This document shows positions 13,138 through 37,012 of a DNA stretch of 62,965 bases, piece after piece. Origin of the DNA: an uncultured bacterium (GTDB taxonomy: Bacteria; Omnitrophota; Omnitrophia; Omnitrophales; Aquincolibacteriaceae). The notes beneath the pieces are model-generated. The model was not told the origin of the DNA. It did no database searches and saw only the letters and a list, made by a program, of their open reading frames with translations. The number at the start of each line of letters is the position of its first letter. Position 1 is the first letter of the stretch. Position numbers and translations under genes: made by a program. The stretch lies in contig CAYLPP010000001.1 of assembly GCA_964385615.1 (NCBI GenBank), positions 38,220 through 101,184 on the forward strand. The letters are read 5' to 3'.

Positions 13138-13149
13138 GGCTTCAGAATG

Positions 13150-18894: not shown

Positions 18895-19043
18895 TTGAGC
18901 TCAGTGTAGGCGGCCATCATATCACAAGCAAGCGCTGGCCAACCACCGAGGATTCTTCGGTAGTTGAGTTGTTGCAGAAAATGCAACGGTTGATCCTTTT
19001 TGTGAATTTCCAGTATGTCCCAAAATGGAACTAACACCAGCTT

Positions 19044-20602: not shown

Positions 20603-23212
20603 TCATGAGACCAGCGCGGGCTCGAGAGCCGCGTTTTCCGCCAGCCAGGAAGAGGCTTCTTTGGAGCCCCGGGCGGTCCAGCGGATGTTGGACTGAATAA
20701 TTTCCAGCGACTGTTTCATGGTGCGCTCAATGCCGGCGATCGCGTTTTTCTTGAAAAACGCCTGCACGTCTTTGAGCTCAGCGGGTTTATTGAACCCGGT
20801 CACGGAGCCTTCAAAAATATGGCCCAGCATGGAAGCCACGCTTCCGCCTTCGTAGCGCCGGCGCAGTTCCTTCACGTTGGATTTATTGAAAGCCCAGGCC
20901 TGGTGGCGGGCAGTGCGGTTGGAGCCGAAACCGCCCAGAATGGCGTAGGTGTCCTGACTGCGCACTTCTTTTGAAAGCGCGAATTTCAGCACCTGAGCGA
21001 TCAAACCCTTTTCTTTGAAGCGGGTCAGCGAGCGCATGATCCGGACTTTTTCTTCATGCAGAGTTACGGTCTTGTAGAGTTTCAGTAGTTGGTCGAGCTC
21101 TTTTTGCCCGCCGTTTTCAGCCGTGATCGCGTAAACCGGCCCGCGCAGGTTCGGCTCAAGCTCGCCGGTCTTCACGTAATACTCAAACAGCGCCTTGGCT
21201 TCGTTGATAACTTCCGGCGCGCCGTAATGCCCGGCCTGCGAAATCAAGAGCGAGCGAAGCAGAAGGTCGGAGTGCGAGTCGGTGGATTTTTTCTCCCAGC
21301 CCAGCGATTTGAGGCAAGGCAGAAGAAGCGAGCGGGCAAAAGCGGAAAGACGCTCCCGGTCTTCTTCCTTATCCAGCAGATTATTAATCGAGCTCAAACT
21401 TCCCGAAACAATGCTCCAGATATTGTACTCACGCTCATTTTTAGCGGAGCTCAAAATCTGCAGAAGGCAGGAGGTTTTAAGGTAACCCGCGCGAGTCAGC
21501 GCGTGCGCGTCGCTTAAAATGCCCAGCGCGTCAATCACCGGATCAGGCAGGCTGCCCGATTCCAGCGCGTTCACCACACCGGCCAGCAATTCACCCGGAT
21601 AAGACGTGCGGTAAAAACCGCTCTGCCCGGCGTTGATCTTGACCCAATCGCTCTCCCCGCCCAAATCCACCACGGAGGAAGCCGATTTCAGCAGACCGAT
21701 AAAAGGTTTTTCCTGGCCCTGGCGCTGAATCACCAGCGGAATCTGCCAGCGGGTTTTCTTCGCGTCTTTGCTTCCGTCAAAAAGAAAACGTTCCTGGCTG
21801 AGTTTGAGTTTGCGCCCCTGGGCTTCAACTTTCAGCACCGGAAAGCCGGGCTGGCGGGTGTAGCCGTCCATAATGGCCTGCACGGGCTTGCCCGAAACCT
21901 GCTCCAGCACTTTCCAAAGATCGTTGGTGGAAGCGTTGCCGTAAGCAAACTTCTTAATATAAACACGCAAGCCTTTGCGGAAAACATCTTCGCCCAGGTA
22001 ATGCTCGAGCATCCGGTTGACCGAAGAGCCTTTGCTGTAAGTGATCGCGTCAAAAATTTCGCGGATCTCGGCCGGGTTCTGCACCGGGATTTCGATCGGG
22101 TGTGTGTTGCGAAGGGCGTCAGAGCCCAGCGCGCGCAGGTAATCGGCCACCACGAACTGATCCCAGATTTTCCATTCCGGGAACTGGTCGTGCACGGCTT
22201 TCGGGCCCATATAAGAAGCGAAGCCTTCGTTCAGCCAAAGGTCGGTCCACCATTCCATCGTGACCAGATTGCCGAACCATTGGTGCGCGAGCTCGTGGTC
22301 AATGACTTCGGCCACACGCTGGCGCGCCGCCGCGGAGGAATTTTGCGGGTCGACCAGCAAAGCGGTTTCGCGGTAAGTGATCAGGCCCCAGTTTTCCATG
22401 GCGCCGGAAGCAAAGTCAGGCAGAGCGACCATGTCGCACTTGGGAAGCGCGTATTGAATACCGAACCATTCGCCGAAATAAGGCAGGCAGTGCAAAGCGA
22501 CTTCGAGCGCGAAACGCCCCTGCTCTTTTTTGCCGGGCACGGTGTAAATGCGCACCAAAGTTCCGTTTTTGTCTTTGGCTTCAACATACTCCAGGTCCGC
22601 CACCACGATCGCCAGCAGATAAGTCGACATGACCGGAGAAATTTCATAATGGAGCTGTTTGAGACCGCCGGTTTTTTTCACGGTCTTTTCAACCGGCATA
22701 TTGGAAAGCGCGGTCAGGTGTTGAGGCACGATCACGGAAATCTTGAAGCAGGCTTTGGCGTCGGGCTCATCCCAGCACGGAAAGGCACGGCGCGCGTCGG
22801 TGGCTTCAAACTGAGTGGCCACGCCCCAGCGTTTCTCACCTTTTACGGTGTAGGCGGTGCGGTAAAAGCCGTGCATCTTGTCGTTGTGGATGCCTTCAAA
22901 TTCAACGCACAGGCAGTTGGCTTCGCCGGGTTTTACGGAACGGCCGAAATCAAACGTGGCGGTTTCGAATTTTTCGTTGTAGGAAATTTTTTTAGCTGGA
23001 AGATCGGCTTTGAGCTTGGCACCGCACAGCCAGGCTTTTTTGATTTTCAGTTCGGCGGAATGCAGGGTGATGGAAGAAAACGGTTTAACCGCTTTAAAAG
23101 TGACGGACTCTTTGCCCTGGAACGTGAATTTTTTAAGGTCGGGCTCGAAGGTGATGCTGTAAACAATGGGAGTGATGTTGCGGTCGAGACGGTAAGGATT
23201 TTTTTTTGCCAT
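20603..23212 (-). CDS. pepN: M1-family aminopeptidase N
   Basis: GAMENWG exopeptidase motif and HELAHQWFGNLVTMEWWTDLWLNEGFA (HExxH-x18-E). Long ERAP1-like C-terminal domain. Confidence 0.9.
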   Translation of the reverse strand: MAKKNPYRLDRNITPIVYSITFEPDLKKFTFQGKESVTFKAVKPFSSITLHSAELKIKKAWLCGAKLKADLPAKKISYNEKFETATFDFGRSVKPGEANCLCVEFEGIHNDKMHGFYRTAYTVKGEKRWGVATQFEATDARRAFPCWDEPDAKACFKISVIVPQHLTALSNMPVEKTVKKTGGLKQLHYEISPVMSTYLLAIVVADLEYVEAKDKNGTLVRIYTVPGKKEQGRFALEVALHCLPYFGEWFGIQYALPKCDMVALPDFASGAMENWGLITYRETALLVDPQNSSAAARQRVAEVIDHELAHQWFGNLVTMEWWTDLWLNEGFASYMGPKAVHDQFPEWKIWDQFVVADYLRALGSDALRNTHPIEIPVQNPAEIREIFDAITYSKGSSVNRMLEHYLGEDVFRKGLRVYIKKFAYGNASTNDLWKVLEQVSGKPVQAIMDGYTRQPGFPVLKVEAQGRKLKLSQERFLFDGSKDAKKTRWQIPLVIQRQGQEKPFIGLLKSASSVVDLGGESDWVKINAGQSGFYRTSYPGELLAGVVNALESGSLPDPVIDALGILSDAHALTRAGYLKTSCLLQILSSAKNEREYNIWSIVSGSLSSINNLLDKEEDRERLSAFARSLLLPCLKSLGWEKKSTDSHSDLLLRSLLISQAGHYGAPEVINEAKALFEYYVKTGELEPNLRGPVYAITAENGGQKELDQLLKLYKTVTLHEEKVRIMRSLTRFKEKGLIAQVLKFALSKEVRSQDTYAILGGFGSNRTARHQAWAFNKSNVKELRRRYEGGSVASMLGHIFEGSVTGFNKPAELKDVQAFFKKNAIAGIERTMKQSLEIIQSNIRWTARGSKEASSWLAENAALEPALVS

Positions 23213-23263
23213 ATTCCCCTGCCTGAGAGTTAAGAATAAATGCGAAAAACGGATTATATCATA

Positions 23264-24160
23264 CTATTTTTTGGGGTGGGATTTGAAGAAGTCCCAGATT
23301 CGGTCGGTGGCGGGCACGCCTTCATCCGCCGTAGGCCAGGCATGGTCGCCGTCTTCAATTGTGTAAAGCTCCACGGCCGTTGAATCACGGCAGTCCGCGT
23401 AAAGCTCCCGGTTCCAGCCGTCGCCAGCTTGGGTTTCGGGATCGGCCGGGCACTCGTCAAATTTTTTCCAGAAATTCACCGCGTAAGAAACCGGATGGTC
23501 GTATTTGCTCCCATAAATAACGGGGCTGTACCCGCCGTTATAAAGCACCTTGAGGTCGGCCGTGCCGTTAAAGGCCAGAATCGAAATGGGTTTTTCAGGA
23601 AGGCAGACACCGTTGAGCGCCCCGCTGACGGGTGCGACTGCCGCGAAAATATCTGAAGCTTCACAGGCGAGGCGATAAGCCAGAATCGCTCCGTTGGAAA
23701 AACCGGTGACGTAAATTCTCGAAGAATCGACCGGATATTCTTTTTGAAGTTTGCCGATCAGCGCGCGGATAAAACCCACATCGTCAATCTGAGCGGCGTC
23801 GGCGTAACCGCAGCAGTTACTGCCGTTCCAGGTCAGCTCACGGGTCGCTCCGGGAATTTCACTGGTGCCGTTAGGGTAAACCACGATAAATTTTTCATCT
23901 CGTGATTTTTCGGTAAATCCCGTCGCCTGTTCAACGGCGAAGGCATTGTCCAGCGCGCCGTGAAGCACCACAACGAGAGGAACCGGCTGATTCAGGTATT
24001 TGGCCTCAGGAGCATGAAGGTGGTAACTGCGCTGCTGACCCCCGTAAATCATCCGCTCGAGGTCATCGGCCCGGGCTGAGGGCGAAACCACGGTCAGGAA
24101 GAGCAGGATTAGAAGCCAATATCCGCGCGAACGCATGGCTAAAGGATAGCATGAAGGCAA
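23264..24160 (-). CDS. Secreted PHB-depolymerase-family esterase (LpqC/COG3509-like)
   Basis: Signal peptide. PLVVVLHGA, NCCGYA and VTGFSNGA (GxSxG) motifs. The true start may be the internal MRSRGYW. Confidence 0.7.
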   Translation of the reverse strand: MPSCYPLAMRSRGYWLLILLFLTVVSPSARADDLERMIYGGQQRSYHLHAPEAKYLNQPVPLVVVLHGALDNAFAVEQATGFTEKSRDEKFIVVYPNGTSEIPGATRELTWNGSNCCGYADAAQIDDVGFIRALIGKLQKEYPVDSSRIYVTGFSNGAILAYRLACEASDIFAAVAPVSGALNGVCLPEKPISILAFNGTADLKVLYNGGYSPVIYGSKYDHPVSYAVNFWKKFDECPADPETQAGDGWNRELYADCRDSTAVELYTIEDGDHAWPTADEGVPATDRIWDFFKSHPKK

Positions 24161-24218: not shown

Positions 24219-24602
24219 ATGAAACGTTTTCTTTCTATTTTTTCCGCTTTCGTCCTGCTCCTTTCAGCCTCACCCGTTTTTGCTTCTTATGAACAAACCC
24301 AGCGTTATGAACGGTTAGAGCCGCCCAATGCCATTGAGAAATACGGCATGAAGGTAGGCGAGAAATTCGATTTCGGGGTCCCGAATTTTTTGATGGGCTG
24401 GACGAATATTCTGACGGAACCGGGTCTCCACCGGAAAACTTCGGATTCCCGGGGGAAACAAGCTCTGTCGGTAACCGGAGGAGCTTTGATCGGCGTTGGG
24501 CTTTTTGTCGTCGATACGGTTGGAGGCGCGGTCAATATTCTGACTTCCCCCATTCCCGTCATCATTCCGCTTCCTCGAGGCGGAGTCAAAACGGCGCATT
24601 AA
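24219..24602 (+). CDS. Small secreted protein, possibly exosortase-system-associated TIGR04073-like
   Basis: 127 aa with a signal peptide. G.PNFLMGWTNILTEP resembles the G..N...GW.EIP core of that family from memory. Weak call. Confidence 0.4.
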   Translation: MKRFLSIFSAFVLLLSASPVFASYEQTQRYERLEPPNAIEKYGMKVGEKFDFGVPNFLMGWTNILTEPGLHRKTSDSRGKQALSVTGGALIGVGLFVVDTVGGAVNILTSPIPVIIPLPRGGVKTAH

Positions 24603-27600
24603 GCCGACCTTCCGAACGCCTGCATGGCCTGGAATGTGCGTGTGATCACGCGTTCGATCGCGAATTTCGAAACTCTGGCGATCGGTTTCTGAGAACCTGC
24701 CACCACAATCCGTCCCCTCGCCAGCTTCACGGCGCTGATCAACGCGCGGTCCACATACTTCCGGGCTTTTGAAGGCACGATCTGCGGATCGACAAACTGC
24801 ATGACCGCCGGCATCTCCAGGTTTTCCTGCTTCGCCTGGTAGCTGACAAAACTTTCCAGACTGCCGAAGCGGTCGTCGCCCACCAGCGAAACTTTACGGC
24901 CTGAAGCTTTCAATTTACGGATATCCCCGCCCAATGCTTTTTTCACGGCATCCCAGTCAGAGGCTGAAGTCGAGGGATCTTTGAAGATGACCAGGCTGAC
25001 TTCGCGCGGTTGAGATTCGACGCGGACCATCAAATTTTTCATAAATTCAAGGGAGTGATCCTCCGCGCGGTAGTCAAAAATAAACTGACCCCGGGTTCCC
25101 GTGAGCACTGCCGGAAACTTGGCTGCGATTCCCGTAGTTTCGGCGAAATTATCCAGCGCGCCCAGGAGATCGGCTCCCGCGCTTTCCGCCTGGAGAATCG
25201 TTTGAAGCATCATGTCTTGTTTGGCTTGAAGCGCCTGCCCGAGCTCCGTCCGCTGAAGGCGCAATTCAGATCTTGTCCGCTTGGGAATAAAAGAGAAGGA
25301 CCCCTTCATGCCCACATAGTAACGCCCTGAAGGTCCCGGCTGATAAACGTTGCGAGGTTCCGAAAGTTGGTAATCCGTGTACCCGGCATCCGTGAGCGCG
25401 TTGGTAACTATCGTCTTGATTACGGTGGAAAGTGTCGGCCCCGTGCTGCTTCCGCCGACAGGAAGTTCCCGTGTAAATTCAGGCTGAACTTCAGCGCGCA
25501 CCCGAAGCTCGCTCAATTTCCCGTTTTTAACCGCGTCCGCATTTTCCAAAATGATACCGCCAGGCGTCCAAAGCCCGCCGGTTCTCTTCGAAGGATTCCG
25601 GATAACCGGCCATTTAATCATGCTGGAAACCGCGGACTCAAATTCACCCGCCAAATCTTTAAGGAAAATATTTTTCCCTTCGCGGTTAACCGCTCTTAAA
25701 ACCGCGAGAACCGCCAGGCTTTGCTCAATTTCCATTTCGTAAGCGATCAAGTGAACCGCGACCTCCCGTGAAGGGCCCGCGTCTTGACGAAGGTACGCCA
25801 AGGTCACTAACCGCACGTACGCGTTGACCAGCCTGCGCTGGAGCTTTTCTTTTTCATCGCCGGCGCCGGCATTTTTTAAATTCCGTTTCAGCGCTTCCAC
25901 TTTTCTCCGAAGCGCGGCTTCAGTGGCTTTTGCCGACAGGCTTTGAAATTCCGCATCCTTCAGTTTTTCAAAAAGAGTTTTCAGCGACTGACTCTGATCT
26001 CTCAATTCGGAGCGCGGAGCCGCGTCGTCATCTCCGAACAGATCTTTTAAAAGATCCGCGGCCTCTGAAATAGCTTCCGGCGTTTCAGCTTCCGGATCAT
26101 TGTTGATTCCCAGAGAATTCAAATCCAGAGCCCCTGTGGGAACATCCTCGACAAGATCGCGGGATAATTCGCCCCCGTCCACAACCAGCGCTTCTTCCAA
26201 CGGCTCCTCAGAAAGACCGCGGGGAATCAAAGGGTCATGCGATTCTCCGTCATAAGATGGAGTGTCGCCAAGCGCGTCCGCGACAAGTGAAGGCGTCACC
26301 CCGGAGTTTCCGTCCACAGAACCCAGACGCAATTTCGAAACTTCCGCATCGGCCTCACCAAAAGAAGCCGCGGGCCTCAAAACTTTAGGAAGCTTTTGAA
26401 GATACGGAACAATGGCGTCCGCTCCATAAGGCTGTGCCGTCGTGTGCACCCCGGTTCCTCCGTGAGTCCGGTACCACACCCAGGCCACCACATAACTCCA
26501 GGGCCGGTACCAAACAGGCGTCGCGGCCGCGCGGGCAATGTGACTGGTTAAAACAAATCCGGCCAAAAGCTGTTTGAACGCGTCAACCGTGTCGCCGTAA
26601 ATTTCCTGAACAATCATGCGTTTCGACATATTTTCGGGAATGTGCGTGTCCGCGTCGGCCACAATATGCTTGTAGGCGCCTTTGGCCACACCCGGCGGAT
26701 TGGGATTACTGCTGATATGAAGAATGTAAGCGCCCGCCAGCGGGATTCCGAATAAATGCGAAAACGGAAAGAAAATCGAAAGAATGGTTTTGATCTGCCT
26801 GCCGATCATCACGACCGCGCTTTCCGTGTTTTCCTGAGCGGGCACACGGCCGTCACGGTTTAAGAGAATGATCCAGGTGGAACGGTCGCCGGAATGTTCA
26901 TCCAGCGCGCGGTAACTGTCGGTCGCGTGAACCGTCACGCCGTTGATGCCGTAGGCCTGGTTGAACATTTTGCGCATGGCAATCGCGAGCAGGTTGGCGA
27001 CATCACCGTTTTTGGAAACGATAATAATTTTCTTAATCCCCATCCGGTCCTGAACGGAGCGTTTATTGCCGTCAATCTGCTTGATCAGAAGCCTCCGAAG
27101 CAGGGGCAATACAGGCCCGGCCAGATGAATATAAAGAAGCGCGTCCATGACCCCGGGAATAAACAAAATTCCGGTAATAACCGCGACCAGGGTGGTCGTG
27201 CGGGCAAAGACTTTAGCGGCAAACCGTTTGGAAACGGGATGCTTGGAAGAAACCATCGCGATCACTTTTCGAACGAGGTAAAAAATCAGCGCGGCGCCGT
27301 AAAAAAACGCGGCAATTCCGGCCAGGACATACCAAGCTCCAAATTGCGCGGCCAGCGGAAAAAGCAAATGATTCAATGCCGTAAAAAGGGGCGAAATCGC
27401 GACACCCGCGGACGGCAGGGCTACCGTAATAAAAATGTAAGCGGCCGCAAGCACCCAAACATCGACAGACTCGTTAATGCGCCGGCCCATGGAAAGGCCT
27501 TCTTCCGCGAGGTTTTTAGCATCCGGAACATCCGTGTCTCCCAATTTGCCTTTTTGAGTGAACCCTGTAATGTTAGGAATACTGGAAGTTAAAAATTCGT

Positions 27601-30600
27601 CGCGGTGCCGTTCGATTTCTTTCAAATCGTCGGCCTCATACCGGCGGTCAAACAAACGCTCACCGGGAAATTTCTCGACAGCCGCACGAGTCAGATAAAG
27701 TCCCATCTCCAAAAAGGTGAGCCGTGTCGCGGCAGTCGCGGCCACGTGAACTTCAGCCGGGCTCCATCCGCTTCGGATCAGAAAAGTACGGCGGGGGCCG
27801 ACATCGTCAGCCATCGGACTGTTAATATCCGCGGTAATGACAAACACTTCGGGAATCATGCGCACAAGCAAAGTCGTGCTGACGGCGGAAGGAAAAGTCT
27901 GGCCTGATTCTCCGCTTCCCAACGCGACCACGAAGGGGTTAATCAGTCCCAAGCGGTGCTTGAGACGTTCAATATCCATTTCAGGAAGGCGCTGACTGGC
28001 ATCTTCTTCTGAACGCGTTGCCAGCTCGGCTTCTTCAAGGATGTGGTTCGGCTCGAGCATTACAATTTCAAGGTCCGGCAGCATTTTTTTGAAAAAAATC
28101 ATCCAATCATTAAAATGCTCCTCGTTTTTCTCTTTCCCATAAAGAACGATATCGGGCCCTTTGATTTCCAGCGGAAGAACCGGTTTGAGAAAACGCTGCT
28201 GCATCCGGTAAAGATCACGTCTTTTCTGCTCTTCATCTTTCCCCGCGGCCTGATTGATAGCCGAAATCAATTCCGCGTGAGGAATTGTATCCAGCTCCTG
28301 CTCCGCGTAACGGGCCCCCTGTTCCAGAACCCCCTGGTTTTCAGACTCCAAATTGAAGTACCCCTCCAAAAGTTCGAACACGGCGCTGTTAATGCGCTCC
28401 GCTAATTCGGACGGAGGGAAATCGCCCCGAATCAGCCCGGAAGAGACCTCATACCCGGCTTTCAGCACCGCATCCATAAATTGCTTTTCAGTTAAGGAAG
28501 CGAGCACCCGTCTGCGGTAAAGCTCAGTCAAAAATTTTTCAGCGGTCAGAAGCTCTTCCGTGTAATTCACTCCGTCATCTTCGCCGATAATCTCACGGGC
28601 TTTGGAAGCCGCCCATTGTTTCAAAACTGGTTTCAGGTAACTGCGTTCGAGCGCCTGGCGGACCCCGTTAAGAATACGCTTCCCGACCGGATTGCGAAAA
28701 AGCACGGACGCAAACTCCTGAGCAACGTGCGGGTTGTGGGGCTTGGGAACTTCCCGTGTCGGAGTCCCCTCCCATTCTTTTTGAACCACTTCCAGATAGC
28801 GCGGTAATTTGCGGTGTTCCGCTTCGATCGGATCTCTCTTCTCTTCGGCTGAAAGCGGAATAAAAGGCGTTACATCCTTGATACGTCCTCTTTCCATCAG
28901 TTGTTGAAGATTCAATTCTTCGCCGGTGGAAAGCGAATAAACCCGGATACTGATAACGCCATTTTCATAACTGACCTCCGCGACTTCACCCAGAGGATCC
29001 AGTTTGAGAATGTGCTGATACCCCTCGACCCGGGCCGCGTTTCTTTCTGAAAATGACCCAACCTGCAGAAGGCCGTCTTTAACGCCGAAACCGATATAAA
29101 TCGGTGAAATCAGCGAAACCGCGACCAGTTTATTCACGGAGCTCGGAGAATACGCGTTAATACCGGCTGAACCGCGGAAATTGATCATGATACTTTTCCA
29201 GACATTGTAAGAATCATTTTTAAAGAAAGCTTCCACCGCGGTCCGGATGAATCTCTCCGTTTTTTGAGGACCCCAGCCATTAAAAAGCCTGATGGCAAGC
29301 GGCTGCGCCGCCTCCGCCGTATGGATTTCAGCCAGAAAAAGTTTCTGAAGGCCTTGAATCGTCTTAGCGTCCACTTTGGCCAAGTCGGGAAAGCGCGAAA
29401 GAATTTCGACCCCCCCGTGTTTTTGAAAAGCCGTTTCGAGGAATTTTGAAAGCGCCTGCTCTTCCGCGGGTGTTAGACTGGTGTCAGGCGCCGTAAGTTC
29501 GGCTTCCGCGCTTTCAGGAATTTTTCCGCCGAAATATTCCTTAAAATCCTCAACCACAGCTTCATCGTAAGCCAGACGCGGAACTTTTTTCCAATCCCCC
29601 TGAACGAGGCGAAGATCAAATTCACCCGCGGCCTTGGGAGAATCGCCCGTCGTGTTGTTGGCTTTCTTCAGAACCCGTTTCAGCCTCCAGCCCACCAGGT
29701 CGTTGCTATAGCGCTTTCCTTTGTGGACGAGATAATCGAAATCGCCATTGTGCGTGATCGCGTTGATCCCAAGCCACTGGTGCGGATGGGCGCCGGCTTC
29801 GATTTCTTCGACATAGGTATCTTTTTCAAGCGCTCCGCCGGTCGGCCAGCGAAGGTGCACGCCGATCATTAGCCGGGAGGGATACCCTACCGAAGAAACC
29901 GCGGCGCGGACCTTTTTGGAAAAATCCAGAAACGCGTCAAGTGCCTGCTGGCGTTTCCAGATGATATATTTTTCAAGAAGCACTTTTTTTCTGCCGTTCG
30001 ACCCTTCCACGACCGCGTAAAAACCCATGGAAATTTTCCCGCGGACTTCGGTAATCATAATGCTCTGACCCAGACGGCTGAGATACGCTTCCATATCTTT
30101 TGAATTTTTCATTTCCCCCTGAATACTGGCGTTACCGCAGCGCAATTCGGAACGTGAAGCCGGTTTCGGCATTTTCTCGGAACCAATCACGGTACTGCTG
30201 TCCTTCCCGCTGATCCGCCGATAAAGCTTAAGCCCAAGCGCTTGAGCTCCCGCTTTAGAAAAGCCGGACAAACCGCTTTTCATTCTAGCCGTGAGTTTGC
30301 GAAGCATCTCCAGCGCGCGGGCAGGTGAAAGCAAAACGCTTAAAATAAAAGTTTCCCCCAGAAATTCAGAACGGTAAACTGCTTCGGGTTTTTCCTGATC
30401 CGGCTGGCCGACTTCCGTCAGGGCTTCATCCCTCGCGGGTTCAATACGGATTTGCATGACTGGTTTTTCCTGGTTTTCCGGGCGCAGTGAAAAAACCGGC
30501 TCATCTTTTTCCGGCGTCACATAAATGGTGGCGTAAGGCGGAAGCTTCACCCCGACGGCTTCAAACATAGTGCTGACAGGCACGCGCTGGCCTTCCGCGT

Positions 30601-32932
30601 TTCTAGCGTTATGCAGAAGGTTATCCAAACGGTTCAGCTCAGGTGTGTAAGCGCGGAGATTCCAGGTCATATTGGTTTTTCCAGTCGCCCGGACTTCAGT
30701 GACCAGTTTCTGGGGATCCTTAATCCGAAGAACGAAATTCTTACGGCCCTGCGGAGTTTCAAAAACCATATGGTAAACACGCTGAGTGCTGACCTGCCCG
30801 GGTTCCAGTTTTCCGGTTTTCGTTCCGTCTTCGAGCACGTGATGCGCCCGGATAAAAAACCGGTTCGCGAACGTGATTCCTTCGTTTTTTAGCGCGTCAA
30901 AAATCTGCGCGCGAAACTTATCAACCGCTGATCCCATGAGAAAAAGCAAATCATCGTCCGGCGTTCTTTCAGGGCTATAGATCATTTTTGAAAAATCAGA
31001 AATCCTGGGAAGATTGCCGGCCGTTTCAGCCGTTCTCGCTTCAGAGCGGGCCGTGGACAGACTTCCCGTCTTTTCCCGGCGCGCGTTCAGTTTCGTCTCC
31101 AGCATGGCGCGGTCATCAGGATCCGCGAGACCGATTTCAACGGAAATCCCGTCACTCATGAGCGCGCGGGCTTCGGCGCGAAGAACCAGATTCCGGTCGC
31201 GTTTTTTCTCCGCGTGCCAATAGCCTTTAATGGAGATCTGAGCCGTACCGAGGGGCTGGGTCATCAGCACCCCCGTATTTCCGTCCAGATAATAGAAGCC
31301 GGGATTGCTCACGGCTGAAAAAAGAGGCGCGAACTGCTCTTCCCCTTTAAAACGGACATTCATCTGAATCCTGGCGGACGGAATTCTTTCACCCTCAAGA
31401 CGCAGAGCGTTGACCGCGTTTAAAACCGCGCCGCTAAGCGCCAGACCCAAACGGCGGTTTTGAACTAATTCTCTAAAATCAAAATTCGTAACGGCTCCAG
31501 CCGGAATTTTCGCGAGATCATCCACAGTCGGGAAACCGGAAGGCGGATTCAGCTGAAACCGGGGATCCTGAACCGGAGACTTCAGCAGAACTGTCATCGG
31601 CGCTCCGTCAATCGCCATCGCTTTGTAATATTTTTCGCGGTCTTCGGCTTCGTCAATTTTATTGCCCGCCGCGGGCATAATGACGATGTAGGAATAACCG
31701 CTTTTCTGCAGAGCTTTCTCAATGCCGGGCGTATGAAACCCGCCGGTAATTAAAACCGACTGATTTTGTCCGCGGTCCTTCATATCTTTCATAGCGTTTT
31801 CAACAAGCGCCTGATCACGTTTCAGCGCGAGAGAATAGAAATTTTCCATCAGCGGAAGGTCGCGGTCGAGAAAAGAAAGGTCCGGAAGAACTTCGCTGAA
31901 ACCATACTGCCTAAGCATTCCGCTCAGCTCGGCTTTAAAGGGGCGGGCTTTAAAAGAACCCGGGTGATTGTAAAAAAACTCCGCGTCTTCTTTGGTCCAG
32001 GCCAGCTGAAAAAGTTTTTCATAAATACTAAGAACCCGGAAAAGACCGTCAAGCTTACGGGCCTCTTCAGTGATTAAAAGTTTTTCGCGAAGTTTTTCCT
32101 CGGCTCCGCTCATTTCATCAAAAATATCCAGCCCCAGCGAAGCCGTCATGCGCTCAGCTTTCTTACCGCTTTCCTTAGCTTCAGACAAAGCCGCGAGATT
32201 CCGGATTTGCGGATAATCCCCTTCAACGCCGTTCTGGTCCAGCAAGTCGCGCAAAAACCGCACGTAAGAAGCAAAACCATGCCCATCTTCCCGGAAACCC
32301 CGCTCCATCTGGCGGAGCTTGCGGTAATTATCGGGAAACATAAATCTGGAAACGTCGTCCATTTTTGTGCGAACCTGAATTAGAATCGGTAGATCCCGTT
32401 TCTGAATTTCAAGCGTGCGCATGAAAATATCGCGGTTGGATTGGTAAAGCCCCCTGTCTTCAACCCCATGAAGCACCAGATCGGGAGAACCGGTCAACGC
32501 TTCGTATTCCGGACCGGTGATCAAGCCTTCGCGGAGAAAATAATCAGCGGTCAGCGCGCGGGCTTCTTTATTAGGGTGAGAAGAAACAAATTGATGCCAA
32601 ATCTCCCCCGTTGAGCCTTCCGTGTGAACCAGTCCGATACCGTGCCGGCTTTTGAGATATCCCAAAATCCCGGCGATATGCTGTTGAATTTCAAGATTTG
32701 AGTGCGCGTCCTGAATATGAACGACCAGCCCGCGCCCATTCCCCTGGTGAAACGATTTTATTTTCCCCAAATTTCCCGGCAGGTCTTTTTGAATTAATGA
32801 AGATGCGTCAGACGGCGAGCTGAGGGGGAAATTCAGCTCAGCCGCCTGCGCATTTTGAGTCACAAGAAAACAAATCAAAACCAGACCTCCGATCACCCGG
32901 AATCCCAGCTTGTTCTTTTTAATGTGACTCAT
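24599..32932 (-). CDS. Giant 2,777-aa signal-anchored multidomain protein with an expanded, TM-interrupted GlmS-like core (class-II amidotransferase + two SIS-like halves)
   Basis: Uninterrupted ORF with a GGGGGA RBS 7 nt upstream. N-terminal hydrophobic signal. GlmS-like motifs at aa ~932-2170 (see findings). About 4-5 hydrophobic helices at aa ~1824-1945 and ~2050-2073. Confidence 0.85.
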   Translation of the reverse strand: MSHIKKNKLGFRVIGGLVLICFLVTQNAQAAELNFPLSSPSDASSLIQKDLPGNLGKIKSFHQGNGRGLVVHIQDAHSNLEIQQHIAGILGYLKSRHGIGLVHTEGSTGEIWHQFVSSHPNKEARALTADYFLREGLITGPEYEALTGSPDLVLHGVEDRGLYQSNRDIFMRTLEIQKRDLPILIQVRTKMDDVSRFMFPDNYRKLRQMERGFREDGHGFASYVRFLRDLLDQNGVEGDYPQIRNLAALSEAKESGKKAERMTASLGLDIFDEMSGAEEKLREKLLITEEARKLDGLFRVLSIYEKLFQLAWTKEDAEFFYNHPGSFKARPFKAELSGMLRQYGFSEVLPDLSFLDRDLPLMENFYSLALKRDQALVENAMKDMKDRGQNQSVLITGGFHTPGIEKALQKSGYSYIVIMPAAGNKIDEAEDREKYYKAMAIDGAPMTVLLKSPVQDPRFQLNPPSGFPTVDDLAKIPAGAVTNFDFRELVQNRRLGLALSGAVLNAVNALRLEGERIPSARIQMNVRFKGEEQFAPLFSAVSNPGFYYLDGNTGVLMTQPLGTAQISIKGYWHAEKKRDRNLVLRAEARALMSDGISVEIGLADPDDRAMLETKLNARREKTGSLSTARSEARTAETAGNLPRISDFSKMIYSPERTPDDDLLFLMGSAVDKFRAQIFDALKNEGITFANRFFIRAHHVLEDGTKTGKLEPGQVSTQRVYHMVFETPQGRKNFVLRIKDPQKLVTEVRATGKTNMTWNLRAYTPELNRLDNLLHNARNAEGQRVPVSTMFEAVGVKLPPYATIYVTPEKDEPVFSLRPENQEKPVMQIRIEPARDEALTEVGQPDQEKPEAVYRSEFLGETFILSVLLSPARALEMLRKLTARMKSGLSGFSKAGAQALGLKLYRRISGKDSSTVIGSEKMPKPASRSELRCGNASIQGEMKNSKDMEAYLSRLGQSIMITEVRGKISMGFYAVVEGSNGRKKVLLEKYIIWKRQQALDAFLDFSKKVRAAVSSVGYPSRLMIGVHLRWPTGGALEKDTYVEEIEAGAHPHQWLGINAITHNGDFDYLVHKGKRYSNDLVGWRLKRVLKKANNTTGDSPKAAGEFDLRLVQGDWKKVPRLAYDEAVVEDFKEYFGGKIPESAEAELTAPDTSLTPAEEQALSKFLETAFQKHGGVEILSRFPDLAKVDAKTIQGLQKLFLAEIHTAEAAQPLAIRLFNGWGPQKTERFIRTAVEAFFKNDSYNVWKSIMINFRGSAGINAYSPSSVNKLVAVSLISPIYIGFGVKDGLLQVGSFSERNAARVEGYQHILKLDPLGEVAEVSYENGVISIRVYSLSTGEELNLQQLMERGRIKDVTPFIPLSAEEKRDPIEAEHRKLPRYLEVVQKEWEGTPTREVPKPHNPHVAQEFASVLFRNPVGKRILNGVRQALERSYLKPVLKQWAASKAREIIGEDDGVNYTEELLTAEKFLTELYRRRVLASLTEKQFMDAVLKAGYEVSSGLIRGDFPPSELAERINSAVFELLEGYFNLESENQGVLEQGARYAEQELDTIPHAELISAINQAAGKDEEQKRRDLYRMQQRFLKPVLPLEIKGPDIVLYGKEKNEEHFNDWMIFFKKMLPDLEIVMLEPNHILEEAELATRSEEDASQRLPEMDIERLKHRLGLINPFVVALGSGESGQTFPSAVSTTLLVRMIPEVFVITADINSPMADDVGPRRTFLIRSGWSPAEVHVAATAATRLTFLEMGLYLTRAAVEKFPGERLFDRRYEADDLKEIERHRDEFLTSSIPNITGFTQKGKLGDTDVPDAKNLAEEGLSMGRRINESVDVWVLAAAYIFITVALPSAGVAISPLFTALNHLLFPLAAQFGAWYVLAGIAAFFYGAALIFYLVRKVIAMVSSKHPVSKRFAAKVFARTTTLVAVITGILFIPGVMDALLYIHLAGPVLPLLRRLLIKQIDGNKRSVQDRMGIKKIIIVSKNGDVANLLAIAMRKMFNQAYGINGVTVHATDSYRALDEHSGDRSTWIILLNRDGRVPAQENTESAVVMIGRQIKTILSIFFPFSHLFGIPLAGAYILHISSNPNPPGVAKGAYKHIVADADTHIPENMSKRMIVQEIYGDTVDAFKQLLAGFVLTSHIARAAATPVWYRPWSYVVAWVWYRTHGGTGVHTTAQPYGADAIVPYLQKLPKVLRPAASFGEADAEVSKLRLGSVDGNSGVTPSLVADALGDTPSYDGESHDPLIPRGLSEEPLEEALVVDGGELSRDLVEDVPTGALDLNSLGINNDPEAETPEAISEAADLLKDLFGDDDAAPRSELRDQSQSLKTLFEKLKDAEFQSLSAKATEAALRRKVEALKRNLKNAGAGDEKEKLQRRLVNAYVRLVTLAYLRQDAGPSREVAVHLIAYEMEIEQSLAVLAVLRAVNREGKNIFLKDLAGEFESAVSSMIKWPVIRNPSKRTGGLWTPGGIILENADAVKNGKLSELRVRAEVQPEFTRELPVGGSSTGPTLSTVIKTIVTNALTDAGYTDYQLSEPRNVYQPGPSGRYYVGMKGSFSFIPKRTRSELRLQRTELGQALQAKQDMMLQTILQAESAGADLLGALDNFAETTGIAAKFPAVLTGTRGQFIFDYRAEDHSLEFMKNLMVRVESQPREVSLVIFKDPSTSASDWDAVKKALGGDIRKLKASGRKVSLVGDDRFGSLESFVSYQAKQENLEMPAVMQFVDPQIVPSKARKYVDRALISAVKLARGRIVVAGSQKPIARVSKFAIERVITRTFQAMQAFGRSA

Positions 32933-32984
32933 GGCAAATCCCCCTTAATTAAATAGTTTTTAAAAACCTTTACTACTTAGAACT

Positions 32985-33031
32985 AAAAAAGACGTTTAAC
33001 GCGATTATTGCCTTAATGCGTTGAACGTCTT
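32985..33031 (-). terminator. Intrinsic terminator / candidate regulated attenuator between the ANTAR gene and the giant ORF
   Basis: Minus-strand RNA reads AAGACGUUCAACGC-15 nt-GCGUUAAACGUCUU + UUUU (14-bp stem, 1 mismatch). Its 5' arm can alternatively pair in UUGAACG-AAGA-CGUUCAA (33021-33038). Confidence 0.6.
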
Positions 33032-33076
33032 CGTTCAATTCTTCGACTGCCCGGCTGCGCAGTATTTTTTTTAAAA

Positions 33077-33874
33077 CTAATTTTTGATTTCTTGCGACAA
33101 AATCACGGCCTCCGCGACCTGGCGGATAGGAATGCGCTTCTCCATACTGCGCTTTTGCAGCATCCGATGCGCTTCCGGCTCTTCGATCTTGTGCTGTTTC
33201 ATCAAAATGCCTTTGGCCCTCTCTACTTTTTTACGCGTTTCGAGTTCCTCAACAGCCGTAACCTTTTCGGTCAACAGCCGGGAATTTTCAATCGCAAGCG
33301 CGGCTTGACTGGCAACCGCCATCAAAACCTGCGTGTCTTCTTTTGAAAAATCACGCTCTGCTTCCGTGTAACAGTTTAAAACACCGATGGCCCGATTCTT
33401 CGTCATCAAAGGAACGCACACCAGCGATTTCAAATTTTCAGTCTTGGCCAGTTCTTTATATTTGTAAGCCGGCTCCAAAGTCACGTCACGCACGACCACA
33501 GGCTGTTTTTCAAGCAGTGCCCGTCCGCTCACGCTTTCACCGACTTTCACGGGAGGTTTGCGCCGGTAATCGTCGCTCAAACTCTGAGTCGCGCGAATCA
33601 CCAACTGCTGTTTTTCTTCGTCCAGTATCATGAGTGAACAAATTTTTGATCCCATAAGCTCCGCGGTCATCCCCACAATGAGAAATAAAACTTCTTCGAG
33701 GTAGCGGTCTGAAGAAATCGCCCGGCTGACGTTATAGAGCAGCTCGAAACTTTTTTTGGCCTTCTCTTCATCTTTGGCTCCTGAACTTTCCATTTTCAAT
33801 GTGACAAGCTTGTTAAAAACTACATTTTTGTCAGCTTGCCTTCTACCCTCGAAGGTTAGTGCTGCGTTGCACAC
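33077..33874 (-). CDS. GAF-ANTAR RNA-binding antitermination regulator
   Basis: GAF-like N-terminal region. C-terminal RKKVERAKGILMKQHKIEEPEAHRMLQKRSMEKRIPIRQVAEAVI is the ANTAR pattern. The start is uncertain (GTG 33874 or ATG 33793). Confidence 0.8.
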   Translation of the reverse strand: MCNAALTFEGRRQADKNVVFNKLVTLKMESSGAKDEEKAKKSFELLYNVSRAISSDRYLEEVLFLIVGMTAELMGSKICSLMILDEEKQQLVIRATQSLSDDYRRKPPVKVGESVSGRALLEKQPVVVRDVTLEPAYKYKELAKTENLKSLVCVPLMTKNRAIGVLNCYTEAERDFSKEDTQVLMAVASQAALAIENSRLLTEKVTAVEELETRKKVERAKGILMKQHKIEEPEAHRMLQKRSMEKRIPIRQVAEAVILSQEIKN

Positions 33875-34067: not shown

Positions 34068-35474
34068 ATGAAAAATGACGCAGGCCTGATCGGGCTCGCC
34101 GTGATGGGCAAAAATCTTGTTTTAAACATTGAACGCAATGGTTTCAAAGTTTCTGTTTTCAACCGCACTTTTGAAACCACCTCTGAATTTCTCGCCAATG
34201 AAGCGAAAGGCAAAAACATCACGGGCCATAAAACCCTTGAGGAATTTGTCGCTTCTTTAGAAAAACCGCGCCGGGTGCTGGTCATGGTCAAGGCCGGAAA
34301 ACCGGTAGATGAAGTCATATCACATCTCCGTCCCCTTCTTGAAAAAGGCGATATTCTGATCGATTGCGGAAATTCTCTCTATAAAGACACGGAGCGGCGC
34401 ACCGCGGAATTTGAAGGAAGCGGTATTCAATATATGGGAATGGGCGTCAGCGGAGGTGAAGAGGGCGCTCTTTGGGGCCCAAGTATTATGCCGGGCGGTG
34501 ATAAATCCGCTTTTGAAAAAATTGAACCTATCCTGAAAAAAATCGCGGCAGATTCCGATACGGGCCGCTGTTTCGCGCATATCGGCAAGGGCGGCGCGGG
34601 TCATTTCGTGAAAATGGTTCACAACGGCATTGAGTACGGCGACATGCAGTTGATCGCTGAAACCTACGACATCATGCGCCGCGGCCTGGGCATGAGCGCG
34701 CCGGAAATCGCGGATATTTTCGCGAAATGGAATGAAGGCATCCTTAAAAGTTATCTGATTGAAATCACGGCCAAGGTCTTAAAACACAAAGATCCTGCCG
34801 ACAAAGCTTATCTGGTTGATCTGATTCTGGACAAAGCCGGCCAGAAAGGCACGGGCGGATGGACCGTCAAAGCCGCGATGGAAGAAGGTGTGGCCATCCC
34901 CACCATCACGGCGGCAGTTGACGCGCGCACGCTCAGTTCTTTAAAAGAAGAGCGTGTTAAAGCCGCGAAAATCTACTCCAGCCTTTCCTGGAAAAAAGAA
35001 AAAGGCGGTAAGGAACTGATCGACAAGCTGATGCTGGCGCTCTACGCCTCCAAAATCTGCTCTTACGCGCAGGGTTTCGCGCTCATGAACGCGGTCAGCA
35101 AAATCAGCAATTACAATCTAAACCTTTCAGAGATCGCGCGCATCTGGAAGGGCGGATGCATCATCCGCGCCATTTTCCTCGACCGCATCCGTAAAGCTTT
35201 CGCCGATAATCCTTCACTGACTAACCTTCTGATCGACCCGGGATTCCAGCAGGATCTTTTAAAGTCGGCCTCAGCCTGGCAGGACGTTTTGGTTTTCGCG
35301 GTCACTCACGGCATCCCGGCGCCGGCCATAAGCGTTTCGTTCGCTTACTTTACTTCGTACGTGACTGAAAATCTTCCGGCTAATCTGATTCAGGCCCAGC
35401 GTGATTTCTTCGGCGCGCATACTTACGAGCGCATCGACAAACCCGGCATCTTTCACACTCACTGGCCGTCCTGA
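34068..35474 (+). CDS. gnd: 6-phosphogluconate dehydrogenase (decarboxylating)
   Basis: GLIGLAVMGKNLVLNIERNGF.V.VFNRT Rossmann N-terminus. GHFVKMVHNGIEYGDMQLI and RDFFGAHTYERID motifs. Confidence 0.9.
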   Translation: MKNDAGLIGLAVMGKNLVLNIERNGFKVSVFNRTFETTSEFLANEAKGKNITGHKTLEEFVASLEKPRRVLVMVKAGKPVDEVISHLRPLLEKGDILIDCGNSLYKDTERRTAEFEGSGIQYMGMGVSGGEEGALWGPSIMPGGDKSAFEKIEPILKKIAADSDTGRCFAHIGKGGAGHFVKMVHNGIEYGDMQLIAETYDIMRRGLGMSAPEIADIFAKWNEGILKSYLIEITAKVLKHKDPADKAYLVDLILDKAGQKGTGGWTVKAAMEEGVAIPTITAAVDARTLSSLKEERVKAAKIYSSLSWKKEKGGKELIDKLMLALYASKICSYAQGFALMNAVSKISNYNLNLSEIARIWKGGCIIRAIFLDRIRKAFADNPSLTNLLIDPGFQQDLLKSASAWQDVLVFAVTHGIPAPAISVSFAYFTSYVTENLPANLIQAQRDFFGAHTYERIDKPGIFHTHWPS

Positions 35475-37012
35475 TGGAAACACACGTTCCCATCAAGGTC
35501 ACGGCGCATGAACAGCTGTGCATTGAGCGTGTTCCCCACCGCCCCTGCGGGTTCATTATTTTCGGCGCTTCAGGCGACCTAAGCAAACGCAAGTTATTGC
35601 CCGCCTTATTTAATCTGTACCGGGAAAAACTTTTGCCCAAAAAGTTTTTCGTGCTGGGCACGGGACGCACGGAATGGAATGACACGAAATTCCGGGAAAC
35701 CGCCGTGGAAACGCTGAAAGAAAACGGCAAACGCGATCCGGAAATGATCAAAGCCTTTTCCGAACGGCTTTATTACTCTCCTTGTGACTACACGAAAGAA
35801 GCTTCTTTTGAAGGTTTCAAGAAGGTTCTGGATTCACTCGATCAGAAACACGAGGCCGGAGGAAACGCCATTTTTTATCTCTCGATTCCCCCGTCGGTTT
35901 ATGACACAACCATCCGCAACCTGATTGCCTCGGGAATGCTTCGCCCCGACAATTCAGAGGCCCCGCAAACCCAAATCGTCGTGGAAAAACCTTTCGGCAC
36001 GGATTTAAAATCCGCGCGTTCCCTGAAAACCGAAACCATGAAGGGACTTTCCGAACATCAGATTTACCGCATTGATCACTATCTTGGCAAAGAGACCGTG
36101 CAGAATATCCTGATGTTCCGTTTTGCCAATTCCATTTTTGAACCGGTCTGGAACCGCGAGTTCATTGACCACATTCAAATTTCTGCCGCCGAAACCCTCG
36201 GCGTCGAGCACCGGGCGGGTTACTATGAATCCGCGGGCGTTCTGAGGGATATGTTTCAGAACCATATGCTGGAACTTCTTTCACTGGTCGCCATGGAACC
36301 TCCTCAGTCGTTCGACCCTGAACATTACCGTGAAGAAAAAGTCAAAGTTCTCAAGCAGATCCGCCCGATTCCCGGCGGAGAGATTGAAGAGTTTTTCGTG
36401 CGCGGACAATACGCGCCCGGCCAAATTAACGGCGCGAAAACCATCGGTTACCGTGAAGAAGAAGATGTGAATCCTGCCTCAGAAATCGAAACCTTCGCGG
36501 CCTTAAAGCTCTTTGTTGATAACCCCCGGTGGGAAGGCGTGCCTTTTTATCTTCGCTCCGGAAAACGTATGGCTGAGCGCACGACTGAAATTATTATTCA
36601 ATTCAAACATATCCCTCATTCCATTTTCACGCGTGTGCCTCCGGATCAAATTCCGGCCAACCGGCTTTATATCCGCATCCAGCCCAATGAAGGCATTCAG
36701 CTGTGCTTTAACGCTAAGCATCCAGGCCCGAAAATGTGCATGGCTACTTTGGGTTTGGAATTCAACTACAACACTGTTTTTGATGAAAAAGATTTGAGCG
36801 CTTATGAGCGCCTGATTCTCGACTGTATGCACGCCGATCCGACTCTTTTCGTCAGTCAGGATATGGTGGAGGTCGCGTGGGCCCTGGTTGAAAATATTCT
36901 CCACACATTCAAAAGCTCTCATCCGCCCAAACTGCATTTTTATCCTTCCGGTTCCTGGGGTCCGGAAGAAGCCATGAAACTTCTTAGCCGGGACGGGCGG
37001 TCATGGCGGTAA
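35474..37012 (+). CDS. zwf: Glucose-6-phosphate 1-dehydrogenase
   Basis: IFGASGDLSKRKLLPAL and IYRIDHYLGKE signature motifs. Confidence 0.9.
   Translation: METHVPIKVTAHEQLCIERVPHRPCGFIIFGASGDLSKRKLLPALFNLYREKLLPKKFFVLGTGRTEWNDTKFRETAVETLKENGKRDPEMIKAFSERLYYSPCDYTKEASFEGFKKVLDSLDQKHEAGGNAIFYLSIPPSVYDTTIRNLIASGMLRPDNSEAPQTQIVVEKPFGTDLKSARSLKTETMKGLSEHQIYRIDHYLGKETVQNILMFRFANSIFEPVWNREFIDHIQISAAETLGVEHRAGYYESAGVLRDMFQNHMLELLSLVAMEPPQSFDPEHYREEKVKVLKQIRPIPGGEIEEFFVRGQYAPGQINGAKTIGYREEEDVNPASEIETFAALKLFVDNPRWEGVPFYLRSGKRMAERTTEIIIQFKHIPHSIFTRVPPDQIPANRLYIRIQPNEGIQLCFNAKHPGPKMCMATLGLEFNYNTVFDEKDLSAYERLILDCMHADPTLFVSQDMVEVAWALVENILHTFKSSHPPKLHFYPSGSWGPEEAMKLLSRDGRSWR

Follow-up and report, generated by a model that had tools for sequence, protein, structure and literature searches.

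A distant GlmS relative within a giant modular protein of Omnitrophota, bracketed by a recurrent motif that may mark sites of cleavage

Glucosamine-6-phosphate synthase (GlmS/GFAT, EC 2.6.1.16; Protein Data Bank [PDB] entries 1xff, 2j6h and 4amv; human GFAT1, 6r4e) has a central place in making amino sugars and cell-wall precursors. It is a soluble protein of ~600 aa in which an N-terminal nucleophile (Ntn) glutaminase domain, a linker and two SIS domains follow one another. Class-II amidotransferases use the α-amino group of an N-terminal Cys. Bacillus subtilis PurF and other class-II amidotransferases are made with an N-terminal propeptide, and upstream sequence is removed autocatalytically in B. 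subtilis PurF and in Ntn hydrolases. In the window analyzed here, a stretch of 62,965 nucleotides from an uncultured bacterium of the phylum Omnitrophota (GenBank assembly GCA_964385615.1, contig CAYLPP010000001.1, positions 38,220 to 101,184), one gene encodes a protein of 2,777 residues (the query) whose core, aa 932 to 2170, has the domain order of GlmS. The core shares with GlmS the residues Cys1, Arg26-Gly27, His-x-Arg73-x-x-Thr76, HPH, Asn98-Gly99 and an Asp123-like GD, together with the GxxG…GxP..G strand motifs, an (E/D)IxEQP-like linker and, in the family consensus, an S-x-S-G-x-T loop. Unlike GlmS, it is 1,240 aa long, has three to four membrane helices between SIS1 and SIS2 and carries extra insertions; it also reaches no curated threshold of Pfam or NCBIfam, with no match to the NCBIfam glmS model, and its Cys1 is internal, at residue 932 of the predicted precursor. 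Whereas the Cys of B. subtilis PurF is exposed after removal of a propeptide of ~11 residues, ~931 residues with other folded domains stand before that of the query.

Giant multidomain proteins offer a second comparison. MARTX toxins, like the giants treated below, are giant secreted proteins with several unrelated enzymatic modules, which in MARTX are freed by an inter-module cleavage that is a proposal for the proteins studied here. The likeness is by analogy only: MARTX toxins have their own internal cysteine protease, which cuts after Leu, whereas Pfam finds neither such a domain nor RTX-type repeats in the query, and MARTX cargo consists of cytotoxic effectors rather than metabolic-type enzymes. 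Giants of Omnitrophota themselves are described, in two preprints, as "multi-enzyme metabolic clusters", with speculation that C39 or S8 peptidase domains cleave them (bioRxiv 10.1101/2023.11.21.568195; 10.64898/2026.06.07.730766). The query resembles the published giants in its phylum-level context, in the presence of a signal peptide with membrane helices and in carrying metabolic domains on one chain, but at 2.8 kaa (thousand amino acids) it lies far under their cut-offs of at least 10 to 30 kaa (10.1101/2023.11.21.568195; 10.64898/2026.06.07.730766). A term search of both preprints found no mention of the shared head, tail, junction motif or amidotransferase/GlmS-like cassette described below, and nothing relevant to RSELR or to a GATase/SIS/transmembrane family came up in literature searches.

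An earlier note, made from the letters of the window, had described the gene as a single unbroken open reading frame (ORF) with an N-terminal signal, and both points were borne out. The ORF occupies positions 24599..32932 on the minus strand, as do all features of this gene given below, and in the ORF listing and translation runs without interruption from an ATG through 2,777 codons to a stop; a Shine-Dalgarno-like AAGGGGG lies 7 nt 5′ of the ATG. The N terminus, MSHIKKNKLGFRVIGGLVLICFLVTQNAQA followed by AE, is that of a typical Sec signal peptide (aa 1 to 30, …TQNAQA before AE; 32843..32932), with a K/R-rich n-region, a hydrophobic core at aa 13 to 24 and an AxA site (AQA before AE); hydropathy peaks at aa 9 to 31, and the structural model has a helix at aa 8 to 28. 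An orthologue of 2,789 aa from an independent assembly, P0002, is collinear with the query and 57% identical over 100% of its length, and its gene has the same flanking genes as the one in the window. A search with the whole protein returned 192 proteins, and statements about these giants refer to the best 120 of the 192. The ~190 proteins share a head domain, and the listed ones generally align with the query only over that region (aa ~45 to 470). Almost all measure 1.6 to 4.8 kaa; the source names are mostly Candidatus Omnitrophota, with a few Elusimicrobia, Auribacterota and Makaraimicrobium. Downstream of the head they carry phosphoglucomutase, PGI, enolase, PEP-utilisers, UDP-glucose dehydrogenase, kinases, SecA or GT2 as cargo. 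One giant, P0165, was recovered identically from two assemblies, and the order of head, GlmS-like module and tail is kept in at least nine giants other than the query. GC content is even across the ORF (0.51–0.54). Because a collinear full-length orthologue has the same neighbours, at least nine giants have the same module order and GC content is even, an assembly chimera is unlikely as the source of the ORF.

Homology of the core to GlmS is visible only with profiles or structure. The single sequence of the whole protein matched neither an amidotransferase nor a SIS family of Pfam or NCBIfam at E ≤ 1, the sole match being ERM_helical at E 0.14, which we regard as spurious; phmmer of the whole protein against the PDB returned nothing relevant, and the core went undetected when Escherichia coli GlmS was compared with the window by pairwise tblastn. 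When a 13-sequence family profile was searched against all PDB sequences, however, the top 11 matches were GlmS/GFAT, aligned over collinear stretches, with E-values of 3.7e-5 for the E. coli glutaminase domain (1xff), 2.4e-4 for full-length GlmS and 0.019 for human GFAT1. A 151-sequence profile, built from an exhaustive family search, was compared by hhalign with E. coli GlmS from MG1655. The glutaminase domain (GlmS 1–218) matched with Prob 95.1% and E 8.4e-9, in an alignment that places Cys1, Arg26-Gly27, His-x-Arg73-x-x-Thr76, HPH, His97-Asn98-Gly99 and two strand motifs, and GlmS 142–366, a span that runs from the C-terminal half of the glutaminase domain through the GlmS-specific linker to the SQSGET loop of SIS1, matched with Prob 88.5% and E 2.7e-6. 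The match to GlmS is weak with the 11 sequences of alignment A2 (Prob 12%, E 0.0024) and convincing only with the 151-sequence profile. The earlier note had staked its assignment on profile searches recovering GATase_2 and SIS in this region; read to the letter, the single-sequence searches of Pfam and NCBIfam do not recover them, whereas the family profile, hhalign and AlphaFold/Foldseek do. At this level of profiles and structure, and only there, the proposed collinear GATase_2, SIS and SIS order with membrane helices between the SIS halves stands, and we consider it very probable that aa 932 to 2170 form a GlmS-related GATase_2 plus double-SIS module.

The class-II (Ntn) glutamine amidotransferase domain extends over aa 932 to ~1337 (28922..30139), as placed by hhalign, the PDB profile search and invariant columns. 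Alignments A1 and A2, which include the query, the 57%-identical orthologue P0002 and P0005, have invariant columns at C-G-N, R-G, H-x-R-x-x-T, H-N-G-D, G-D and S-G-Q. Cys932, whose conservation the earlier note had wanted examined, lies in the invariant C-G-N column, and 118 of the 161 collected family sequences have Cys-Gly aligned there. The glutamine-binding and oxyanion residues are present: R964-G965, R1028, T1031 and N1062-G1063 are aligned by hhalign to GlmS, and D1097, the Asp123 equivalent, is placed only by alignment A1 (the invariant G-D) and by eye. The short motifs first picked out by eye are all found at the residues given for them, namely CGNASIQG (932–939), EVRGKIS (962–968), HLRWPTGG (1026–1033), AHPH (1048–1051), THNGDFDY (1060–1067), TGDSPKAAG (1095–1103), SPIYIGFG (1276–1283), GSGESGQT (1672–1679) and VHVAATAAT (1728–1736). 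The glutaminase domain carries an insertion of ~130 aa after the Asp123 equivalent. It is followed by a GlmS-type interdomain linker (aa ~1338 to 1414), which aligns with GlmS 219–290, and by a helical insertion of ~175 aa before SIS1 (aa ~1415 to 1589; linker and insertion together, 28166..28921); the latter is lineage-specific, being shared in alignment A1 only by the query, P0002 and, in part, P0005. These two insertions and the membrane insertion described next account for the core being about twice as long as GlmS.

SIS domain 1 spans aa ~1590 to 1800 (27533..28165; GKEKN 1598–1602, GSGESGQT 1672–1679), on the evidence of the hhalign match to the GlmS SQSGET loop and of Foldseek. A membrane insertion at aa ~1801 to 1940 (27113..27532), with three to four hydrophobic helices by hydropathy and in the model, separates it from SIS domain 2, which together with a conserved C-terminal helix and a "TTA.P" family tail occupies aa ~1941 to 2170 (26423..27112) in the double-SIS fold alignment; the family profile ends at aa 2169. 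The AlphaFold2 model of aa 1640 to 2200 (49-sequence alignment) has a pLDDT of 77.8 and a pTM of 0.78. Searched against the PDB with Foldseek, it retrieved SIS proteins as all of its top 50 matches (probability ~1.0, E 5e-3 to 7e-2), with double-SIS AgaS (3c3j_A), the GFPT1 isomerase domain (2v4m_C) and GFAT1 (7ndl_B) aligning over 497–511 columns. AgaS (3c3j), FrlB (8glr) and NagB-II (8eym) align with the model over ~200–500 columns and differ from the core in being soluble and in lacking both a glutaminase domain and a membrane insertion. The query has no match to the Pfam SIS model, and its relatives P0122 and P0129 have weak ones (E 0.03–0.04). Beyond the signal peptide, hydropathy peaks strongly at aa ~1828–1846, 1856–1887 and 1908–1933 and weakly at 2050–2068, and three long helices split the SIS halves in the model, at aa ~1803–1841, 1867–1897 and 1901–1938 (model numbering 164–202, 228–258 and 262–299). 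Thus, of the four to five hydrophobic helices initially proposed, those at aa ~1824 to 1945 were found, whereas the one at aa 2050 to 2073 is not a membrane helix: the segment 2050–2068 is non-helical in the model and belongs to an insertion inside SIS2 that only the query and its orthologue have. If SIS1 and SIS2 pack as modelled, they must be joined by an even number of helices.

The amidotransferase/SIS fusion had seemed to be without described counterpart. Instead, the core belongs to a large unannotated family whose members are mostly standalone proteins in cyanobacteria. Searching 1.84 billion representatives exhaustively with a profile gave 2,493 clusters (at 50% identity) with E ≤ 1e-3, or 661 with E ≤ 1e-30. 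A search with aa 900 to 2320 returned standalone proteins of ~1,000–1,290 aa with no Pfam annotation, two of which begin (M/V)-C-G-N, and 13 listed family representatives start with Met-Cys or Val-Cys, the Cys being residue 2. In species-representative genomes the family is chiefly cyanobacterial (Nostoc, Pleurocapsa, Chamaesiphon, Synechococcus, Leptolyngbya and others), and it is also present in Omnitrophota, Elusimicrobia, Planctomycetales and Myxococcota. Strains of Nostoc, Synechococcus and Chroococcidiopsis are among those with the standalone homologue. Eukaryotic members exist, one of which, from Prymnesium parvum, UniRef names a type-2 glutamine amidotransferase protein; the named bacterial records examined are all "hypothetical protein". 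Since the family fails the curated models and carries the membrane insertion, we regard it as a family of distant GlmS paralogues, separate from GlmS itself. A large family of relatives of this central enzyme is thereby identified, and its membrane-anchored members point to an unrecognised glutamine-dependent reaction at the membrane.

Standalone GlmS-like proteins usually have an N-terminal multi-pass membrane prodomain of ~190 aa with an HGxGH motif (P0121, P0123–P0127, P0133 and others; loci L002–L081); the prodomain of P0132 has HELAH, with a Pfam M50 match only at E 0.9. Extended members mostly show a conserved junction, S-D-x15-18-[FYLC][YFCNH] directly before C-G-N, after this S2P/M50-like prodomain, and the pattern suggests that a site-2-protease-like prodomain may expose Cys1 of the standalone relatives. 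The genes around one cyanobacterial standalone homologue offered no hint of its function. On both contigs seen (L083:11802–13304; L084:4300–5802), a gene for a 500-aa protein with no Pfam domain lies immediately downstream of the standalone cyanobacterial gene and convergent to it.

The GlmS-like core of the query is delimited by a motif that recurs throughout the giants. Outside the head domain, RSELR and RSEVR are their two commonest 5-mers, and RSE[LVIMA]R is found 128 times where composition predicts 2.4, a 53-fold excess (0–5 in permuted controls). The motif is carried by 33 of the 120 listed giants, with A/G/S/P-rich flanks and at domain-sized spacing. A six-frame translation of the window contains five copies of R[SA]E[LVIMA]R, all of them in the giant ORF: RAEAR, junction-like, at aa 585–589 (31166..31180); RSEAR at aa 629–633 (31034..31048); RSELR at aa 927–931 (30140..30154), abutting Cys932; RSELR at aa 2307–2311 (26000..26014), a position conserved in P0002; and RSELR at aa 2554–2558 (25259..25273). 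These sites delimit exactly the homology blocks of the protein, namely the head, a module B, the GlmS-like core, a module D and the tail. The five sites differ from one another in their codons and in the nucleotides beside them, which indicates that selection acts on the motif peptide; a DNA repeat or recombination site was rejected on the same ground. The bracketing extends to unrelated domains. Specifically, in P0114 a 2-hydroxyacid dehydrogenase (1144–1476) lies between motifs at 1076 and 1518, and in P0108 a receiver domain starting at 3919 has a motif before it at 3908 and one after it at 4053. The GlmS-like cassette itself has the motif on both sides in at least nine giants.

In four giants the motif stands at zero distance from the catalytic Cys: the query (P0001), P0002, P0165 (GTRSEVR directly before CGNAS) and P0137 (VRSEVR directly before CGNEG). 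Among 189 occurrences of the motif, only four are followed by Cys, and each of these is the catalytic Cys of a GlmS-like cassette; at the remaining ~185 sites, which lie around unrelated domains, the next residue is A, S, G, T or N. In P0178, of the same CGNAS subfamily, a prodomain-type junction takes the place of RSE[LV]R before the Cys, and the two look interchangeable in this position from the sequences compared. A second recurrent motif, ASSLG, is present in up to six copies per protein in giants without RSE[LV]R (P0083, P0101, P0026, P0029, P0080, P0087 and P0100) and may be a lineage-specific alternative junction motif.

Beside these observations, that is, the ORF, the GlmS/SIS homology, the size of the family, the enrichment and domain bracketing of the motif and its abutment on the Cys, we set the following explanation. 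The protein would be a modular chassis with a Sec signal and a TIKI/ChaN/Ere-like head first, a tail ending in -SA last and, between them, cassettes separated by R-S-E-[L/A]-R, the largest of which (aa 932 to 2306) would be a distant membrane-anchored GlmS paralogue. The precursor would be cut directly after the second Arg of each motif; a cut after Arg931 would make Cys932 a free N-terminal nucleophile and release an active Ntn amidotransferase, which on the membrane would hydrolyse glutamine and hand the ammonia to a phosphosugar ligand of the SIS pair. The protease could be the TIKI-like head domain or another protease. We hold this explanation as a whole to be moderately probable. That RSE[LV]R is a real cleavage site is suggested by its abutting Cys932, a residue that has to be N-terminal in this enzyme class, and here we regard the case as evenly balanced; confidence in the identity of the protease is lower than that. 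From comparison we infer the cleavage, its agent (the head or another protease), the acceptor substrate and the side of the membrane.

The head is a candidate protease because RRSP shows that the TIKI superfamily contains sequence-specific endopeptidases. RRSP, a MARTX effector, is a TIKI-family endopeptidase; the superfamily includes Bcr135 and HopBA1, and erythromycin esterases share the TIKI catalytic mechanism (PMC6254334). On homologues, alignment A3, AlphaFold and Foldseek, the head (aa ~45 to 470; 31523..32800) is tentatively placed as a TIKI/ChaN/Ere-superfamily-like hydrolase fold with a large helical insert. In the 20 head domains of alignment A3, H77, E105, R372 and H400 are invariant and D75 nearly so, and D75-x-H77, E105 and H400 reproduce the acid-x-His … Glu … His pattern, as a sequence pattern only. 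The spacing of 28 from His to Glu equals that in Bcr135 (H85/E113) and RRSP (H3902/E3930) (PMC6254334), whereas a helical insertion of ~220 aa splitting the fold and an Asp in place of Glu as first acid set the head apart from the TIKI superfamily. In a model with pLDDT 81, Foldseek ranks Bcr135 (3b55, 2rad), EreC (6xcq, 6xcs) and HopBA1 (5t09) 1, 2, 6, 9 and 10, all at E ≥ 0.05. Pfam matched PF04187 (ChaN) in 3 of the 20 head domains (best E 1.6e-4) and PF01963 (TraB_PrgY_gumN) in one (E 0.15), with none for the query head; the head-domain profile found no real match among PDB sequences, and a single head domain found no close relative in species-representative genomes. The vague TraB/Tiki/ChaN likeness that the earlier note had seen at the N terminus thus gains a little from nonsignificant Foldseek ranks and three weak ChaN matches, and a TIKI/ChaN/Ere-like head is plausible but not proven.

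Several points weigh against the explanation of a modular precursor cut after the second Arg of its motifs. The case for processing is one of comparative inference alone. A cleavable signal peptide and the lack of a hydrophobic segment between aa 31 and ~1824 predict that the amidotransferase and SIS1 lie outside the cytoplasm, an unexpected place for chemistry on glutamine and phosphosugars and one that sets the query apart from the standalone relatives starting with Met-Cys; the 2026 preprint points to a similar tension in much larger Omnitrophota giants, which combine metabolic domains with a signal peptide and membrane helices (10.64898/2026.06.07.730766). The SIS1 phosphate loop of the query, G-E-S-G-Q-T, has diverged from the family consensus SqSGqT, with GlmS S303, S347 and Q348 replaced in the alignment by N, G and E. 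Of the SIS phosphosugar residues, whose conservation was a check proposed at the outset, three SIS1 phosphate-binding positions have diverged in the query subfamily, and two of the four binding positions of the loop are kept. By hhalign the comparison of SIS2 with GlmS 441–608 is not significant and places no equivalents of the isomerase residues Glu488, His504 and Lys603; to the eye, a K-L-x-x-x-S-Y stretch may resemble GlmS K485–Y491 with Glu488 replaced. The Foldseek matches of the head fall short of significance (E 0.05–0.3, low TM-scores), and since only 33 of the 120 listed head-domain giants carry the motif, the head cannot be tied to the motif site in general. Giants with related heads do tend to share a motif class, 25 of 28 nearest neighbours being in agreement (shuffle mean 8.6; none of 2,000 shuffles reaches 25), but shared ancestry alone could produce this link. 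Finally, the Ntn domain might cut itself, with no motif-specific protease.

One alternative, which we consider somewhat unlikely, takes up this last point: cleavage would be real and the head not its agent, the cut being made by Ntn self-cleavage or by a separate Arg-specific protease, while the head would act as an esterase or peptidase on external substrates. Most N-extended family members use the prodomain-type junction before the Cys, so that exposure of Cys1 needs no RSE[LV]R; the head is present in giants without the motif; and the TIKI superfamily holds esterases (Ere) as well as peptidases (PMC6254334). Self-cleavage would explain the Cys932 site only, however, and not the ~185 other sites around unrelated domains, and for a separate protease the window offers no trans-acting candidate except an M1 aminopeptidase (20603–23212), a member of an exopeptidase family.

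A second alternative, which we think unlikely, is that the giant is an uncut membrane or surface protein in which Cys932 stays buried and the module is a ligand-binding, sensor or scaffold unit rather than a glutaminase, RSE[LV]R serving either as a structural linker or for recognition by something other than a protease, for instance a chaperone, a secretion factor or a docking partner. SIS domains are often sensors, and many of the top fold matches are RpiR/NanR/MurR regulators; the diverged SIS1 loop and a predicted extracytoplasmic location ill-suited to glutamine-dependent catalysis would also fit. Set against this are the glutaminase Cys, Arg, Asn-Gly and Asp, invariant in A1 and A2, with Cys-Gly kept across most of the family sequences collected, and the zero distance between motif and catalytic Cys in P0001/P0002, P0165 and P0137, which a cleavage site explains and a mere linker would not. 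Highly improbable is an assembly or frameshift artefact joining several genes, or a GlmS likeness made of chance short motifs: either would agree with the empty single-sequence Pfam and NCBIfam searches, but the first is opposed by the full-length orthologue with the same module order and flanking genes in another assembly, by the two identical recoveries of P0165 and by the at least nine giants with the head, GlmS-like and tail order, and the second by profile-profile and fold evidence for GlmS and SIS homology.

Extended to the giants at large, the preferred reading of motif-directed cleavage becomes a tentative one: Omnitrophota giants may be polyproteins with an RSE[LV]R processing code, from which the head or a partner protease would free separate enzymes, with other motifs such as ASSLG used in other lineages. 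Given the signal peptide, the products of such polyproteins may be released outside the cytoplasm or into a host or prey cell. Not knowing whether and where Omnitrophota giants are cut has hampered work on them, as one preprint makes explicit, and a motif that brackets domains provides a concrete test, predicting for the query cleavage after Arg931 and a chain that starts at Cys932. The head, tail and junction motifs also supply rules for splitting giants into units that can be modelled or expressed separately.

The regions flanking the core, which had at first defied assignment, resolve into the conserved head, modules and a tail separated by the junction motif. Module B (aa 634–926; 30155..31033) is found in P0002, P0165, P0135, P0143 and P0003 and has no Pfam or PDB match. 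Downstream of the family region lies an acidic, poorly conserved spacer (aa 2171–2306; 26015..26422), followed after the motif by module D (aa 2312–2553; 25274..25999), which as a homology block is found only in P0002; a homology search with aa 2312 to 2777 gave no matches at all, this known orthologue included, and is uninformative. The tail domain (module E, aa 2559–2777; 24602..25258), defined in alignment A5 and comprising about the last 209 residues of the query, stands at the extreme C terminus in 18 of 18 giants with such a domain; each of these proteins ends in -SA or -AA, the query in -SA. A tail profile searched against the PDB and tail members searched against Pfam gave nothing. Among the 120 listed head-domain giants, 85 end in [SA][ALV]-COOH (AA 27, SL 22, SA 20, AL 8, SV 8), and such C termini could be a recognition or sorting signal.

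Immediately upstream of the giant gene lies a gene for a GAF-ANTAR regulator (33077..33874, minus strand), with conserved synteny: it occupies the same position in the window, at the P0002 locus (L082) and at the P0165 loci. Between it and the giant ORF, folding places a hairpin followed by a U-run, resembling a terminator (32979..33042, minus strand). A strong hairpin with a U-run is present in all three leaders, those of the window, L082:1727–1865 and L085:3862–4003, with z = −3.7, −2.4 and −7.3, respectively, and the sequence UUGAACGARGACGUUCAA, conserved in the window and L082 leaders, could by eye form a small competing hairpin. The terminator-like hairpin and the possible competing one next to a GAF-ANTAR gene suggest that the giant gene is under antitermination control. 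At the P0165 locus, the GAF-ANTAR gene has another giant gene (L085/L086:1–2872) next to it on its upstream side, whose product, truncated where the contig ends, measures at least 2,506 aa; this raises the possibility that giant genes are clustered. Just downstream of the giant gene in the window, on the same strand (20603–24160, minus), are genes for the M1 aminopeptidase (869 aa, 20603–23212) and a PHB-depolymerase-like esterase (298 aa); at L082, too, the giant gene is followed by the esterase gene. A gnd-zwf-pgl cluster (6-phosphogluconate dehydrogenase, glucose-6-phosphate dehydrogenase and 6-phosphogluconolactonase; 34068–37704, plus strand) is divergent from the GAF-ANTAR/giant unit. 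Farther off, GC content drops to 0.37–0.44 at ~12000–19000, compared with 0.50–0.55 elsewhere in the window, and this island, which contains DNA-methylase ORFs at 15477–17342 and 17339–18607 (minus strand), may be an acquired restriction-modification or mobile region.

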